DNA of 24,000 nucleotides from Methanothermococcus sp. SCGC AD-155-M21 (GTDB taxonomy: Archaea > AGJL01 > Methanococci > Methanococcales > Methanococcaceae). Positions 7,269-14,941 of the stretch are shown piece after piece. The DNA lies in the NCBI GenBank assembly GCA_019561565.1, contig JAHEPY010000002.1:1-24000 (forward strand), in the 5' to 3' direction. Within the stretch, counting starts at the first letter, position 1; each line of letters starts with the position of its first letter. The position numbers were made by a program, and so were the translations under genes. The notes beneath the pieces were generated by a model. That model worked only from the letters and a program-made list of their open reading frames with translations, made no database searches and was not told where the DNA came from.

Positions 7269-7314
7269 GTTATTAATTTTTAATGAATAATAATATATAA
7301 TTTTCGGTGAAATA

Positions 7315-9312
7315 ATGAAGTTCAATTTAAAAGGAAAAATAATATTCAGTAGGGAGATAAGTGAGGATATTAAAAAGGATATAGAAGAAGTATTGAAAAA
7401 CAGTAGAGACATTTTCCTAAAGGGAGTGCCAAAGGGAAAGGAGGATGAGGCCGCTAAAATAATAGATTATGATTTTCAAGGAAATGAACTTTTATTACAC
7501 ATAGATTCAGGTACTTATGCCAGGGCCCATGAGGCCATTATAAGGTTGAAGAAGCCCATTATTGAGAAGATTGGGAAGAAACATAAGATAGGTATTAGAG
7601 GTATCCTCATTGAGAACTATGATATCAACATACCTGTAGGATATAATATAGTAATGAGTATGAACTTACAAGAAATAGAATCACTATCTAAGAAATTACA
7701 AGAATTACCACTTATGAAATTACGAGAAATGAAATTGCAAGAATTACCACTTATGAAATTACGAGAAATGAAATTACCGGATATGAAATTGCAAGAAATA
7801 GAATCGCAATATAAGAAATTACGAGAAATGAAATTACCGGATATGAAATTGCAAGAAATAATATCACAATATAAGAAATTACAAGAAATAGAATTACTAT
7901 ATAAGAAATTACAAGAAATAGAATCACTATCTAAGAAATTACAAGAAATAGAATCACTATCTAAGAAATTACAAGAAATAGAATCGCAATATAAGAAATT
8001 ACAAGAAATAGAATCACTATCTAAGAAATTACAAGAAATAGAATCGCAATATAAGAAATTACAAGAAATAGAATCGCAATATAAGAAATTACAAGAAATA
8101 GAATCGCAATATAAGAAATTACAAGATACGAAGGTACAGGATACAGAAGCACTAGAATTAAAATTTACATTCGGTGATATATGTGAGAGAGAACTTAAAA
8201 GAAATATCATAGACCGGACCATAAAGTTTGTAAAAACCCATTTAGAGTCAGAAAAGGAAAAGGATTTAACCTTTGATGTTTGTGCCATAGAACCAGGTAC
8301 CATAGTAAGTGAATACAAAAGAAAAAGAGCTATTACATTTAAGGAGGATCCAACAGATGTTGCAGAGAAACTTGGATGGGTTAGAAGGTTCATAGGAAAA
8401 GGACAGTGGTTTTACACTCCTCCAATGACAAAGTTATTTAGAACCTTTGAGGAACTTATAATGGAGGAGTGTATTGATAAAATAGGATTTGATGAATGCC
8501 TATTCCCTAAGTTGATACCTCTGGAGGTTATGTATAAAATGAGATATTTGGAGGGACTTCCTGAGGGCATGTATTATGTATGTCCTCCAAAAAGGGATCC
8601 TCTAATGTTTGAGGAATTTGTAAATGAAATGATGATAAAGAAGGAAATACCCATTGAAAAATTAAGGGGCCTATTGAGGGATCCAGGATATGTATTGGCT
8701 CCTGCCCAGTGTGAGCCATTCTATCAATTCTTTGATCATCAGTTGATTGATGTAGATAAACCTATAAAATTTGTGGATAAAAGTGGTTGGACCTATAGAT
8801 GGGAAGGAGGAGGAGCAAAGGGGCTTGATAGGGTTAATGAATTTTTAAGGATAGAGTGCGTAGAAATGGGAAGTCCAGAGTTTGTTGAAAGGGTTAGGGA
8901 TGATACCTTAAAATATGCAGAAAAACTTGCTGAAAAACTTGATTTAGAATATTGGACTGAGGTTGGAGATGATCCCTTTTATTTGGAAGGTAGAAAAAAG
9001 GAAGATAGAAACATAGAGTTCCCAGAGGTACCTAAGTACGAAATGAGATTATGGCTACCTCACATAAAGGATGAAAGAAAAGGAGTTGCAGTAACCTCTG
9101 CAAATGTCCATGGAACCCATTTTGTTGAAGGTTTTGGCATAAAGGACTATAGGGGGAGAAAGGTTTGGAGTGGTTGCACTGGTTATGGTATTAGTAGATG
9201 GGTAGTGGGATTCTTGGCCCAGTATGGATTTAATTACGATGATTGGCCAGAGATGATAAAGAAAAAAATTAAGAAACTACCAGAAATTCCAAAGGTAATT
9301 AATTGGCCTTAA
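7315..9312 (+). CDS. serS: Seryl-tRNA synthetase, methanogen type, carrying a ~150-aa repeat insertion
   Basis: It aligns by eye with methanogen-type SerRS through [64 protein letters not shown] and [20 protein letters not shown]. The 665-aa length is well above the roughly 500-520 aa I recall for this family. Confidence 0.9.
7663..8126 (+). repeat. In-frame tandem repeat inside serS, built from 30-, 24- and 15-nt modules that all begin AAATT(A/G)
   Basis: There are near-identical 30-nt units, aaattacaagaaatagaatcactatctaag and ...tcgcaatataag ([10 protein letters not shown] / [10 protein letters not shown]). Shorter modules [13 protein letters not shown] and KLPDM are interspersed. This is seen directly in the sequence. 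Confidence 0.95.
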
Positions 9313-9432
9313 ATAATGACTTAAAAAAAAATTATAAAAAATAAAATAATAATTAAAAATAGATATAAAAATAAAATTATAAAAAATAAGATTTTGAATA
9401 ATAAAGGAATAAAAACATAAAAATAAATTAAA

Positions 9433-9590
9433 ATACCTATAAATTAGTAAAAACATAAAAAGTAAAAGTCCCATTATTAATTCCTTATGCTCCCAAGCAC
9501 TGGAAAAAGGATAAAACCCTTTTACAGGATATCTTATGGAAGTTCATATTGATACGGTAGGGATTTAAAGCATCTTTTTATTGATGTTTT
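9433..9590. repeat. Copy B of the paralogous intergenic element (candidate small-RNA gene; strand unresolved)
   Basis: It shares the 5' block and internal blocks with 1177-1330 (see copy A). An internal hairpin aaaagg-ataaaac-cctttt lies at about 9505-9523. The T-run ctttttatt lies near 9575-9583. A perfect tttatata box on the - strand lies at 9620-9627. Confidence 0.4.
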
Positions 9591-9792
9591 ATTCTCTTTA
9601 TTATCTTGGTTAAGGCAATATATATAAACTTGGCAGTATTCTCTTTATATTCTATTTATTGTCTGTATTATATCCTTTTATTTTATTATTGTCCTATATT
9701 TTTAGTTATTTATTTATAGATCTTAAGTTAATTTTATTTATTCTATTAAATTTTTTTAATTTTTTTTATAATATTAAATTATAGGGGATTTT

Positions 9793-10959
9793 ATGAATAT
9801 TGGAGTTGTTGTTCATGGGCCTGAAATAGTGGATAATGGATATGCTGAAAAAATTTTAAAAATATTAAGGGAATTCTCAAAGGAATATGGCCTAAAAATA
9901 AACATAAATGCCAAGATTGGGGGTAATATTGGAAGAACTGCCGTAATAGATAGAAATTTAGAAAGGATCATAGATATATCTGAAAAACTTTATCCCTCTC
10001 AATGTTTAAAGAAATTAAAGGATAATGATATATTACTCTTAATAAACTATGGCAAATCCAAAGAAACTGGGCATACCTTTGGAAGGATTGTTATAGAAAG
10101 GGCAAACATAGATAAACCCATAATCCAGATAGAGAGGCCAGGGGAAGTTGATGGATCTATAATAATATGGAATAAAGAAAAAATGGAGGAGGGCAGTGAA
10201 AAATATTTAAATAAATTAATAGAATACCTATCAAATAAATTGAATTTAAATAGTGAGGAATGCATAAGTAATGGTTTAACCCTATGGGAGGAGGATGGCA
10301 AGGTATTTAGAAAAATAAGTACTGTTGATGCTGGGGAAAATATTATGGTAAATGGCATAATAATAGGTTATGCAATAAAAAATCCAATTATACTAATATC
10401 TAAAGATAATAGGTTGATTGATGTAATTAATGGAGAAATAAAAAAAGAGGGTATGGAACGCTTAGGTCCTATAGATTTAAAAAATGCCATTATAAAAACA
10501 GGTATTTTAAGGAGAAATATTCCCAATATTCCATACAACATAGGGGGCATAAAAAATATGGAAAATAAACCCTCCATTAAACTATCTGAAAGGGGGAGTG
10601 TTCTTATTTTATGGGATACAAAAAGAGATATTTTAAAGGAGTTAAATAATAAAAATATATCCAGTATAATCACAATAGGCAGTGATACAACCATAATTTA
10701 TGGCAATATGTTATGGAGATTTAATATTAAAATAATAGGAATAGTTGAGGATGATTTCCATAATCATAACATAATTAAAAATCCCTTAATAACCAAGGGT
10801 TCTAAGATATTTTTAATAAAAAATAAAACTAATGCTCCCATTTATAAATTAATATGGAATAATTTAAAAAATAAAGAATTAAAGTACGATGATACTTTAA
10901 ATTACATTAATAATCTGTTGGATAGAAATAATGTTGATTATGATATTATTAATAGTTAG
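9793..10959 (+). CDS. Hypothetical protein (conserved-archaeal look, no family recognised)
   Basis: 388-aa ORF with the SD-like aggggatt before the ATG. It is Asn/Ile/Lys-rich but not low complexity. No nuclease, helicase or Cas-type motifs were recognised. Confidence 0.65.
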   Translation: MNIGVVVHGPEIVDNGYAEKILKILREFSKEYGLKININAKIGGNIGRTAVIDRNLERIIDISEKLYPSQCLKKLKDNDILLLINYGKSKETGHTFGRIVIERANIDKPIIQIERPGEVDGSIIIWNKEKMEEGSEKYLNKLIEYLSNKLNLNSEECISNGLTLWEEDGKVFRKISTVDAGENIMVNGIIIGYAIKNPIILISKDNRLIDVINGEIKKEGMERLGPIDLKNAIIKTGILRRNIPNIPYNIGGIKNMENKPSIKLSERGSVLILWDTKRDILKELNNKNISSIITIGSDTTIIYGNMLWRFNIKIIGIVEDDFHNHNIIKNPLITKGSKIFLIKNKTNAPIYKLIWNNLKNKELKYDDTLNYINNLLDRNNVDYDIINS

Positions 10960-11186
10960 AATTTTCTTATTTTTATTATATGAGGATATATTCTTTTATT
11001 GAGATGAATTAATATTAAAAAAATTAAAAATTATAATAAAATTTAATTTTAGAATTTTAATTTAGTTTTTTATATTCATATATTTAAATTTATTAAAAAT
11101 TATTATTATTTTTTATTTTTTTAATTATTTTATTTTTTTTATTAAATAATTTATAAACAAAAAATAATGGGTTTCCATCCCACTAT

Positions 11187-11235
11187 CTCAAAATTCCTTC
11201 GGAATTTTTACGATTTACTCGCTTCGCTCGTAAAT
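11187..11235 (-). repeat. 49-nt insert inside CRISPR repeat R1 (composite repeat 11171-11249)
   Basis: The sequence ctcaaaattccttcggaatttttacgatttactcgcttcgctcgtaaat splits the repeat between ...cactat and ggtctgattttaac. It is identical to the copy at 14344-14392. Confidence 0.95.
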
Positions 11236-11782
11236 GGTCTGATTTTAACTAGAGCAATAGAAACTGGTATTCCGTTAATACCTGCAAGTTTCCATCCCAC
11301 TATGGTCTGATTTTAACTGTATAAATGCATTGAGTTTAGGACAATCACATTTTGCGTTTCCATCCCACTATGGTCTGATTTTAACTATATATTGAAACAT
11401 CATATTGCCATAAGAATTTTAAGTTTCCATCCCACTATGGTCTGATTTTAACATATTGGATTTTCTATTGATTTTGATTTATTGCATAATTAGTTTCCAT
11501 CCCACTATGGTCTGATTTTAACTTAAAGGATTAGTAATGGATTTAGAGAAGATATAAAAGTTTCCATCCCACAATGGTCTGATTTTAACTATTTTGATTA
11601 TGATGATGCATATACAAGTATATTAAAGTTTCCATCCCACTATGGTCTGATTTTAACATATAATAAATCTTTTAAATATAAAAATCAAATATTTAATTTG
11701 TTTCCATCCCACAATGGTCTGATTTTAACAAACCAATACGAGCGGTTATGGAAAGAATTTTAAAAGGTTTCCATCCCACAAT

Positions 11783-11831
11783 CTCAAAATTCCTTCGGAA
11801 TTTTTACGATTTACTCGCTACGCTCGTAAAT
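11783..11831 (-). repeat. 49-nt insert inside CRISPR repeat R9 (composite repeat 11767-11845)
   Basis: This is the same 49-mer at the same repeat position, with one substitution (T to A at 11820). Confidence 0.95.
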
Positions 11832-14343
11832 GGTCTGATTTTAACATAGTAATGAATATATAGAATTTTTAATAAGTAGTATAGGTTTCCATCCCACAAT
11901 GGTCTGATTTTAACCTCCCGGATATGATTTAAATCAAGAAACTAATAAATCGTTTCCATCCCACAATGGTCTGATTTTAACACTGTTAGATTTTTAGGCC
12001 CATCTCCAGTTATAGTCTGTTTCCATCCCACAATGGTCTGATTTTAACCCATTAATGTCCAGGACCCATATAAAAACCTGGTTTTGTTTCCATCCCACAA
12101 TGGTCTGATTTTAACAAGTTTCTCCAAACTCCTCAACTTCAGCAATTAATAGGTTTCCATCCCACAATGGTCTGATTTTAACAGAGTATGATCACATAAA
12201 AAGGATAAAAGTTAAATGTTTCCATCCCACAATGGTCTGATTTTAACTTAATACCCTCACTCATGCATTTTCCCTCTTTCCTGGTTTCCATCCCACAATG
12301 GTCTGATTTTAACGGGGTTCCTGCCAGGTCCTTTTGATTCAAAACCCATCTCCAGTTATAGTCTGTTTCCATCCCACAATGGTCTGATTTTAACCCATAC
12401 ACTCAAGAACAATCTGACAGCACAGAATTCAGTTTCCATCCCACAATGGTCTGATTTTAACATGTAGCAATGATATTATCCATAGTTTCCAAATTCGACG
12501 TAGTTTCCATCCCACAATGGTCTGATTTTAACAAATTATAAAATCTATGAACCTAACTTATTACGAGTTGTTTCCATCCCACAATGGTCTGATTTTAACG
12601 TATTTATTTTAACTTTTAATTTATATGATAATCCAGGTTTCCATCCCACAATGGTCTGATTTTAACTCACTGCCCCAAATGTGCAGATTTATGAATATTC
12701 CTCGTTTCCATCCCACAATGGTCTGATTTTAACTTCATGAGGGGAGAATTTTTAGGAGAGAACTTAGTCAAGTTTCCATCCCACAATGGTCTGATTTTAA
12801 CAATAGATAAGTATAATATTAATTTATATGACTATAAATGTTTCCATCCCACAATGGTCTGATTTTAACGATATATTAGATGATAAAATCCTTGAGATAA
12901 TACCTGGTTTCCATCCCACAATGGTCTGATTTTAACATCCTCCCTCATCATTAGAAAAAACCAGATGTAAATGGTTTCCATCCCACAATGGTCTGATTTT
13001 AACATTAATTTTCCAATATCCTTGCTTTTGATATATTCAAGTTTCCATCCCACAATGGTCTGATTTTAACATGCACTGTATCCTCTTGCATCCCAATTCC
13101 CTGAATTCATGGAAGTTTCCATCCCACAATGGTCTGATTTTAACTGATTACGTGATTTATACAGATGCCAATACCTATAAGTTTCCATCCCACAATGGTC
13201 TGATTTTAACTACCTTTAAGGTTATACTTTAATTTTAATAATTCTAATGTTTCCATCCCACAATGGTCTGATTTTAACCGTATGAATATACCCATATAAA
13301 AAGTTTCCATCCCACAATGGTCTGATTTTAACTTTACATAAGAAGAAACTAAAACATACCCTGCATTTTTGTTTCCATCCCACAATGGTCTGATTTTAAC
13401 GATGTTTAATGGAACACACAATGAACAATTCAGGAATTTGTTTCCATCCCACAATGGTCTGATTTTAACTATTTTTTTTCATATGCTCATATGTCTTTAT
13501 CATCTGTTTCCATCCCACAATGGTCTGATTTTAACAAGATTATATATAAGAATATGATTATACAGAAATAGGTTTCCATCCCACAATGGTCTGATTTTAA
13601 CAAATCGACAAGTTGTCTGTAAAAGAATTAATAGAACTAAGTTTCCATCCCACAATGGTCTGATTTTAACAATTAAATGAAAATGAAATAAAACAAATAA
13701 TAGAAGATTGTTTCCATCCCACAATGGTCTGATTTTAACCTTCTACTTAATAAAGTTATATTTCCATCTCTAACTTCGTTTCCATCCCACAATGGTCTGA
13801 TTTTAACTCGTATTTGCTTGGAAAAGATATTTTAAAGGTGATACAAGTTTCCATCCCACAATGGTCTGATTTTAACTTTAACACTAAGACTGATAAAGGG
13901 ATATACATAAAAATGATGTTTCCATCCCACAATGGTCTGATTTTAACAAAACCCATGCGTACTAGTAATATACATATTCTTTTAATTAGTTTCCATCCCA
14001 CAATGGTCTGATTTTAACTGTAATCATACCAGCATCAACTGTACAGATACTATACAAGTTTCCATCCCACAATGGTCTGATTTTAACTGGAAATTAATAA
14101 GTAATCCTATTAAACACAAATTTGAGTTTCCATCCCACAATGGTCTGATTTTAACATACCATATAAGATTATACACAAGTACCCCAGAAGCATTGTTTCC
14201 ATCCCACAATGGTCTGATTTTAACTGCATGCCCTATATTCGTTGAATTACGGCTATTTTTGTTTCCATCCCACAATGGTCTGATTTTAACTAGAAAAATA
14301 TAGAAATGAAATAGAAAGTATTTATGAGTTTCCATCCCACAAT

Positions 14344-14392
14344 CTCAAAATTCCTTCGGAATTTTTACGATTTACTCGCTTCGCTCGTAAAT
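14344..14392 (-). repeat. 49-nt insert inside CRISPR repeat R46 (composite repeat 14328-14406)
   Basis: This is the same 49-mer at the same repeat position. Hairpin aaaattcc (14347-14354) / ggaatttt (14358-14365) is followed by T5. A second inverted repeat is tttacga (14364-14370) / tcgtaaa (14385-14391). Confidence 0.95.
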
Positions 14393-14441
14393 GGTCTGAT
14401 TTTAACTACCCAGACTGAGATAAACCTAACAATAACCAACA

Positions 14442-14471
14442 CGCTTCGCTCGTAAATGGTCTGATTTTAAC
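14442..14471 (-). repeat. Truncated leader-adjacent unit: the last 16 nt of the insert fused to the 14-nt right half of the repeat
   Basis: The unit reads cgcttcgctcgtaaat + ggtctgattttaac. The left repeat half (gtttccatcccacaat) and 33 nt of the insert are absent. Confidence 0.9.
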
Positions 14472-14519
14472 AGTTAATAATTTTCTTTATTTTACTATAA
14501 AGAAGGTTGTATCTTCTCC

Positions 14520-14527
14520 TATATAAA
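14520..14527 (-). promoter_or_regulatory. Candidate TATA box (TTTATATA on the - strand) for pre-crRNA transcription
   Basis: This is a perfect methanogen box-A consensus about 50 nt upstream of the first array unit. The predicted start is about 25 nt before the repeat. AT-rich background makes chance matches likely. Confidence 0.35.
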
Positions 14528-14561
14528 CCTTTCTATCTCGAATCTATAATAAGGGCACTTC

Positions 14562-14569
14562 TATATAAA
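14562..14569 (-). promoter_or_regulatory. Second candidate TATA box (TTTATATA on the - strand) in the leader
   Basis: This is a perfect consensus octamer, with the same caveat as the first box. Confidence 0.3.
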
Positions 14570-14941
14570 GACCTGCGACTTGATAATCCTCCTTATTTTA
14601 ATCCACACAACCCTAAAATTAATTAAATAAAATAAATAAAGAAAAATTATAAGGAAAACACAATAAACCCAAATAAACTTACCTAATTAATCTAAATCTC
14701 AATAAATTATTAAATCTAAATATATAAAATAATCATAATCCACAATCGATATGAGATCAAAAATCCTATCTTATTTTAATATTTAACAAATTAAAAAAAT
14801 CTTAAAAATAAAACCAAGACCCTACTCCAAGATAAAATAATCCAAAAAAATAAAACACATAGAAAATATTATAAATTTTAAAATTTAATAAAAAGATTAA
14901 GTTTATATAATTTTATTTTTTATTATAATAAAAGGGAGATT

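Follow-up and report, generated by a model that had tools for sequence, protein, structure and literature searches.

Chimeric leader-adjacent repeats in CRISPR arrays of a deep-sea methanogen and their probable origin in spacer integration at an interrupted repeat

Almost all that is known of the rules by which Cas1-Cas2 measures the repeat that it copies comes from mutants engineered in a small number of model organisms. In the type I-B system of Haloarcula hispanica, the duplication always starts from the leader junction and needs the AACCC motif at repeat positions 11-15, and it normally ends at a fixed distance from the GTGGG motif at positions 18-22 (PMC4872114). In the H. hispanica repeat mutants Rm16-30 and Rm18-22 adaptation is impaired but not abolished, and duplications of 30-31 bp are produced (Wang et al. 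2016, PMC4872114), while insertions of at least 4 nt between the two motifs leave no detectable expansion (PMC4872114). In Pyrococcus furiosus, Cas1-Cas2 makes paired attacks 30 bp apart, a distance that is mainly set by the leader-repeat junction (Grainy et al. 2019, PMC6698737); the last four bases of the repeat are dispensable, and both sites of attack show a preference for G or C (PMC6698737). The use of a stored spacer places a separate demand on the repeat: a crRNA-producing repeat needs an 8-nt 5' handle that resembles AUUGAAAC, the tag that type I-B crRNAs of Methanococcus maripaludis and Clostridium thermocellum carry at the 5' end (PMC3479195).

Here we describe a CRISPR array in which the unit that adjoins the leader consists of the first half of a repeat joined to the beginning of an insert. 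The array lies in a stretch of 24,000 nt from Methanothermococcus sp. SCGC AD-155-M21 (positions 1-24,000 of contig JAHEPY010000002.1, assembly GCA_019561565.1), which we refer to as the window. An earlier reading of the same DNA, made from its letters alone and called the sequence-only reading below, had pointed out the unusual unit and had taken it as a sign that the array may be disabled at its growing end. Comparison with other arrays in the host genome and in a sister genome leads us to a different view, in which chimeric units of this kind form a natural, multi-step record, left in a deep-sea methanogen, that is the counterpart of the laboratory experiments with repeat mutants.

Layout and orientation of the array

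The array (11171-14471, with crRNA on the minus strand) is flanked by the genes aksF, truA, ilvBN, serS and ubiX, and no cas genes were found within the window. It contains 43 plain 30-nt repeats, three interrupted 79-nt repeats and one terminal 30-nt unit (Table 1). The regular repeats are of a single length and are separated by unique spacers, mostly 35-42 nt long with a median of 37 nt. All 43 plain repeats match Rfam CRISPR-DR13 over the full length of 1-30 on the minus strand, at scores of 31.1-34.3 bits that lie below the gathering score of 37; the same search of the chimeric and interrupted units gave no match. Some spacers are irregular in other ways. Spacer 30 (13279-13302) is only 24 nt long, well under the norm; spacers 11 and 16 (11999-12018 and 12345-12364) have 20 nt in common beside the repeat, spacer 16 being 51 nt long; and spacer 21 (12678-12698) overlaps, in reversed orientation, 21 nt of a spacer at C2:38874-38894 in a second array on the same contig (C2), where the adjacent spacers 38318-38353 and 38384-38419 are identical.

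Table 1. Positions of the repeat units, spacer 46, the insert and the leader in the window
Feature	Positions	Strand	Length (nt)	Remark
Interrupted repeats	11171-11249, 11767-11845, 14328-14406	minus	79	The first is the leader-distal terminal repeat of the array
Older part of the array, R1-R45 (45 repeat units) and spacers 1-44	11171-14290	minus		
R46, full repeat interrupted by the 49-nt insert	14328-14406	minus	79	
Two-hairpin insert in R46 (predicted fold)	14344-14392	minus	49	
Spacer 46, self-matching	14407-14441	minus	35	Between the chimeric unit and R46
Chimeric unit adjoining the leader	14442-14471	minus	30	Positions 1-14 of the repeat joined to nt 1-16 of the insert
CRISPR leader	14472-14940	minus		Recognized by likeness to 14 other leader copies

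In the alignment, the chimeric unit and the leader-side end of the interrupted repeats agree in exactly 30 consecutive nt, and the base that follows is a mismatch (A at 14441, T at 14376). Its pattern has four matches in the window when at most one mismatch is allowed, compared with none in 100 shuffles. The insert and the second half of the repeat both start with ATT and, consequently, the first 17 nt of the unit equal those of a normal repeat, from which it differs at positions 18-30 only. The GACC at repeat positions 11-14 is retained, whereas GTGGG and the ATGGAAAC end are absent, and no hairpin is predicted for the unit. The sequence-only reading had thus described the unit accurately, as half a repeat plus 16 nt of the insert followed directly by spacer 46, with the second repeat half missing; it was also right that the next repeat, R46, is interrupted too, and that the defective repeat is on the leader side of the array, where it meets the leader without a gap.

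The orientation of the array is provided by the sister genome, Methanothermococcus sp. SCGC AD-155-C09 (hereafter G017), in which the flanking genes are 93-96% identical to those of the window. The type I-B operon of G017 has the order cas7-cas5-cas3-cas4-cas1-cas2-cas6 and is followed by a leader and then by an array whose repeat stands in the window's minus-strand sense. On this locus (L027), cas4 occupies 9569-10111, cas1 10159-11124, cas2 11099-11401 and cas6 11398-12108. Window positions 14472-14620 are 93% identical to this cas-adjacent leader, and over its first 149 nt the window's leader shares 81-97% identity with 14 further copies, among them the cas-adjacent one. The chimeric units meet the leader at the junction where plain repeats do so in 10 other copies of it. 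A TTTATATA box at 14520-14527 on the minus strand, some 50 nt upstream of the first unit, is a putative TATA box in view of what is usual in methanogen promoters. The repeat ends in ATGGAAAC, which is one base different from AUUGAAAC. The cas-adjacent leader of G017, the sense of the repeat that follows it, the strand of the DR13 matches and the ATGGAAAC end together place the leader from 14472 onward and the crRNA on the minus strand, as the sequence-only reading had assumed.

That reading had also named the arrangement under which the unit would be nothing unusual, namely transcription on the plus strand from a leader in 10960-11170, with the unit a decayed leader-distal repeat. The left flank is indeed AT-rich, non-coding and conserved among arrays, but it is the homolog of the right flank that the G017 cas operon precedes, the DR13 matches and the 3' ATGGAAAC handle agree with the minus strand, degenerate or nested terminal repeats occur at the left ends of arrays, and the stepwise inheritance in a paralogous array described below indicates growth at the right end. 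We regard the plus-strand arrangement as the least credible of all the alternatives considered in this article. An ordinary degenerate terminal repeat was likewise rejected as an identity for the unit, which adjoins the leader, whereas such repeats sit at the leader-distal end. On the side of the array away from the leader, the intergenic stretch after serS (~9310-9790) is part of a multi-copy element: a BLAST search with window positions 7300-10960 gave 122 matches in G017, nearly all of them at query positions 2000-2480.

The insert and chimeric units at other loci

In the crRNA sense, the insert splits the repeat after position 14-17, the junction being ambiguous by 3 nt (ATT), and the 49 nt are identical in the three interrupted repeats of the window. 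The insert is predicted to fold into two hairpins, each with a CGAAG loop. All 14 copies in the two genomes are inside CRISPR repeats. Of the 23 genomes covered by a pattern search across the family, 2 contain the insert. In a scan of representative genomes, Methanothermococcus sp. SCGC AD-155-C09 alone showed the junction, and neither the chimeric/insert junction nor the insert core was matched in metagenome scans. Variants of the interrupted form occur at the leader-distal ends of arrays. Nested terminal repeats, consisting of the left half, the first 8 nt of the insert, a second copy of the left half's final 10 nt, and then the complete insert with the right half, are found in the host at C2:37685-37779 and C38:4961-5057 and in G017 on contig C116 near 9708, which points to slippage or a double event where the insert entered. 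A degenerate terminal-repeat allele, …GATGATAAC in the crRNA sense, is without the insert at the cas-adjacent array of G017 (C34; L027 near 16332) and carries the insert at G017 contigs C73, C102 and C11. Because this allele exists both with and without it, the insert is polymorphic and has been gained, lost or converted.

The host assembly (G000) is 55% complete and consists of 98 contigs with some N. On its contig C38 (6160-6697; L052:956-1493), a single interrupted repeat precedes seven chimeric units, after which comes a homologous leader. These units have 29 invariant nt and one variable base each, and the spacers behind them are all unique and 35-37 nt long. Toward the leader, position 30 reads G, T, T, T, C, C, C. 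Such a stepwise change fits a process in which each new unit copies the one adjacent to the leader, and it confirms the direction of growth. Position 29 is C in the chimeric units as opposed to G in the adjacent interrupted repeat and its ortholog, which requires one additional early mutation or an imprecise first event.

The C38 array has an ortholog in the sister genome. As far as the interrupted repeat, host positions C38:5205-6238 align with G017 positions C112:144-1177 at 96.4%, and the alignment resumes in the leader; a 431-nt chimeric block is present in the host and absent from the G017 ortholog. The lone interrupted repeat beside the leader on C112 probably represents the retained state from before the chimeric units were added. 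Nearby, at C38:5190-6159, two CRISPR repeats directly enclose a 970-nt segment that includes a gene for ferritin (176 aa, minus strand); the segment is also found at two contigs of the sister genome (C112:129-1098 and C21:30414 onward), and the mini-array upstream of it has no leader.

The locus on the ubiX side in G017 (contig C73) is the ortholog of the window's leader. It consists of the leader, a degenerate chimeric unit of about 30-32 nt, an unrelated 36-nt spacer and a degenerate interrupted repeat, which is the layout of the window in decayed form. The sequence-only reading had proposed that related arrays be compared for newer spacers and for an intact first repeat; at this ortholog the first repeat, too, is a degenerate chimeric one.

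At each of the three loci, an interrupted repeat stands on the distal side of the oldest chimeric unit. In the arrays examined in both genomes, no chimeric unit was found among plain repeats and tandem duplication of the 79-nt form was never seen. The duplicated length is maintained regardless of the sequence at the far end: 30 nt in the window, 29+1 in the seven C38 units and 30-32 nt at G017:C73. The spacers behind chimeric units have a mean length of 35.5 nt (range 35-37, including spacer 46) versus 37.7 nt for the comparison set of 89 normally flanked spacers (median 37 nt; Mann-Whitney p = 1.5e-4). The sister genome also has four modules that consist of a leader and a lone interrupted repeat.

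Origin of the chimeric unit

We consider it probable that the terminal unit of the window is a chimeric repeat that arose when a spacer was integrated in the normal way at a first repeat that was itself abnormal. At the time of acquisition of spacer 46, the repeat next to the leader would have been the 79-nt interrupted form. R46 could have come to adjoin the leader either through insertion of the 49 nt or through fusion with a module of leader and lone interrupted repeat, and the template would be the same both ways. The type I-B Cas1-Cas2 would then cut at the leader-repeat junction and make its second cut at the fixed repeat length of 30 nt onward, a point that now lies 16 nt into the insert. 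Gap repair would duplicate these 30 nt, with R46 as the presumed template, and produce the order leader, chimeric unit, spacer 46 and intact interrupted repeat. Such a ruler cut on a 79-nt first repeat copies only its first 30 nt, which matches the layout in the window, and continued integration would yield the C38 array with its seven successive chimeric units. The spacer between the two copies is new, unique and of normal size, although about 2 nt under the array norm. Points against an origin through the integrase are the C at position 29 of the C38 units, the reduced length of the spacers behind chimeric units, the cas genes not found in the host assembly, and the tolerance of a 49-nt insert, unlike in H. 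hispanica, where insertions of at least 4 nt abolished detectable adaptation. Copying of the whole 79 nt by means of a second anchor beyond the insert was also considered, and it was never seen here.

The geometry, recurrence and polarity of the chimeric units are observed in the arrays themselves; that Cas1-Cas2 made them we infer, taking the enzyme from the sister genome, in which cas1 is present. In the 55%-complete host assembly, no cas1, cas2, cas4 or cas6 was found by searches for the Cas1 and Cas6 families and by tblastn with the I-B proteins of G017. The non-cas gene pdxT, used as a control, was likewise not found in the assembly, which indicates that the cas region is simply unassembled. 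An exact look-up of UbiX gave one Logan contig, which ends inside the leader. The seven acquisitions at C38 with such units imply that a full-length canonical first repeat is not required by the integrase, which would appear to depend on the leader junction and the repeat's first half alone, and on neither GTGGG nor the end of the repeat.

The sequence-only reading had drawn the opposite conclusion from the same unit: since Cas1-Cas2 was taken to require a full-length first repeat, a defective leader-proximal unit would block it and the array would be frozen at its growing end. The absence of a canonical first repeat, including GTGGG, the anchor of the ruler in H. hispanica, favors this interpretation, as do the single spacer that the window array holds behind the interrupted repeat and the failure to find adaptation genes in the assembled part of the genome. 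However, the unit has exactly the geometry expected of an integration product, the leader is intact and 93-97% identical to the leaders of long arrays, and the paralogous array on C38 gained seven spacers with such units while its ortholog gained none. We therefore find a freezing of adaptation unsupported and hold it to be unlikely; the supposed requirement for a full-length first repeat does not agree with the seven spacers added at C38 behind an interrupted first repeat. The unit is best read as the likely trace that adaptation left when the first repeat was an interrupted one, and it is probably the read-out of the array, not the writing, that is disabled.

An origin without the integrase is very unlikely in our judgment. 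Deletion, slippage or recombination of insert-bearing repeats could have produced the unit, in which case spacer 46 would represent a captured piece of some host gene; the arrays of this lineage do recombine, as the mixed repeat alleles, the nested partial duplications of the insert and the duplicated spacers attest, and spacer 46 is derived from the host. A random breakpoint, on the other hand, would coincide with the repeat length about once in 50-65 cases, yet the length is 30 nt (30-32 nt) at three loci, and neither deletion nor slippage can make seven unique, normal-sized spacers between identical units. Even less probable is an artefact of assembly or single-cell amplification. It is suggested by the fragmentation of the genome and its N positions, and by the closest relative being a single-cell genome that comes from a study of such genomes (PMC8417812), but it would require two exact junctions, both at repeat boundaries and separated by 35 nt, and units of the same type recur elsewhere, seven of them, with unique spacers, on a second contig and one in a second genome. 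Integration into an interrupted first repeat is thus the explanation that we retain in what follows.

Read-out of the spacers and comparison with described systems

The chimeric unit ends in GCGAAGCG rather than ATGGAAAC, and it is without the region of the 8-nt handle and without the mini-hairpin. As the presumed Cas6 cleavage region and the handle are missing, spacers behind chimeric units should yield no handle-bearing crRNAs; such spacers would be stored but not matured into working crRNAs. The sequence-only reading had called the newest spacer unprocessable. That the half of the repeat with the Cas6 site and the handle is absent from the unit is borne out, and it follows as a probable consequence that spacer 46 does not mature.

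Spacer 46 matches the host's own contig C60 (3984-4015) over 32 of 32 nt and the paralogs at C7:1200-1231 and C52:1443-1474 with 1-2 mismatches. Within these genes for secreted NosD/beta-helix surface proteins, which are also present in G017, the target falls in the CARDB region. In the crRNA sense the spacer is antisense to the mRNAs of these host surface proteins, so that a working crRNA would be hazardous with type III-A as well as with type I-B systems. Both are associated with arrays of this kind: the same repeat and leader follow the I-B operon in G017, and a III-A csm module is located on the window's own contig (C2:41289-50169; L073), outside the window and beyond the leader of the second array, with genes for cas10/csm1, csm2, csm3, csm4, csm5, an unassigned 501-aa protein and a Csm6-like CARF protein. 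None of the 338 normally flanked spacers from both genomes matches the assembled host genome outside the arrays; the comparison of these spacers with their own genome and the fetched loci gave no protospacer and, consequently, no PAM. Scans of IMG/VR with 20-mers of the C38 spacers gave no match, and BLAST of the C38 block against the genus gave only repeat matches among the matches listed, from which no PAM is derivable. Spacers that remain unmatured behind a chimeric unit would explain how the self-matching spacer 46 is tolerated. Its match to the host is consistent with non-processing but, as one spacer out of eight, is suggestive only.

We also consider, as a rather unlikely extension, that the 49-nt insert is a repeat-specific mobile or gene-converting element which, once in the leader-adjacent repeat, alters what the integrase copies and thereby turns the array into a write-only sink for spacers. 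If this is true, a sink array would absorb spacers, including self-derived ones, that never mature; this could amount to selfish or viral poisoning of the CRISPR memory, or else to diversion of dangerous acquisitions by the host, and the modules of leader and lone interrupted repeat, four of them in the sister genome, would be standing sinks.

The proposed origin of the chimeric units has implications beyond this locus. Type I-B integration would go on when everything past position 17 is replaced, with ~30 nt still copied, which would place the essential information at the junction with the leader and within the repeat's first half. Adaptation and read-out appear to be separable in nature, such that arrays may record spacers that are probably useless or even self-directed, and this uncoupling bears on the practice of reading spacer content as a history of infections. 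Array-detection software would miss or mis-orient chimeric units.

Among described systems, H. hispanica is similar in subtype, in the 30-nt repeat, in an AACCC-like motif at positions 11-15 and in GTGGG at positions 18-22, and its mutants are similar in that the distal half of the repeat is replaced and a duplication of about repeat length still ends independently of the sequence. By this analogy, the chimeric unit, in which positions 1-17 are kept, may be regarded as the natural counterpart of the mutants with positions 18-30 replaced. The differences are that 1) the replacement is natural, was brought about by a 49-nt insert and is fixed over up to seven successive acquisitions, 2) 29-30 nt are duplicated (perhaps 32 at one decayed locus) instead of 31, and 3) the GTGGG of the template is 49 nt further off and is absent from the chimeric units, and the copy is still ~30 nt long. 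The G at positions 1 and 30 of the chimeric unit corresponds to the preference at the attack sites in P. furiosus, which, in contrast to the present case, also uses an A-rich block in the repeat's middle portion (16-22); positions 18-22 of the chimeric unit are unrelated to those of the normal repeat. The two-ruler model of the Escherichia coli type I-E system (Goren et al. 2016, PMC5039180) shares the principle that the repeat size is measured from internal anchors. It concerns, however, another subtype with a palindromic repeat, and a second anchor beyond the insert would predict a 79-nt copy.

Two further comparisons concern the defective repeat and the spacer beside it. Like a degenerate terminal repeat, the chimeric unit is an off-consensus repeat at the end of an array, but the classical degenerate repeat is leader-distal and arises by drift, whereas the chimeric unit is leader-proximal, of exact length and propagable. 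Self-targeting spacers that are tolerated by means of defective flanking repeats or other kinds of inactivation (reviewed in PMC6990116) likewise combine a host-matching spacer with a non-canonical repeat; here the defect would be a systematic by-product of integration and not a secondary escape mutation. Set beside these systems, the chimeric repeats would represent a natural variant of a known mechanism.
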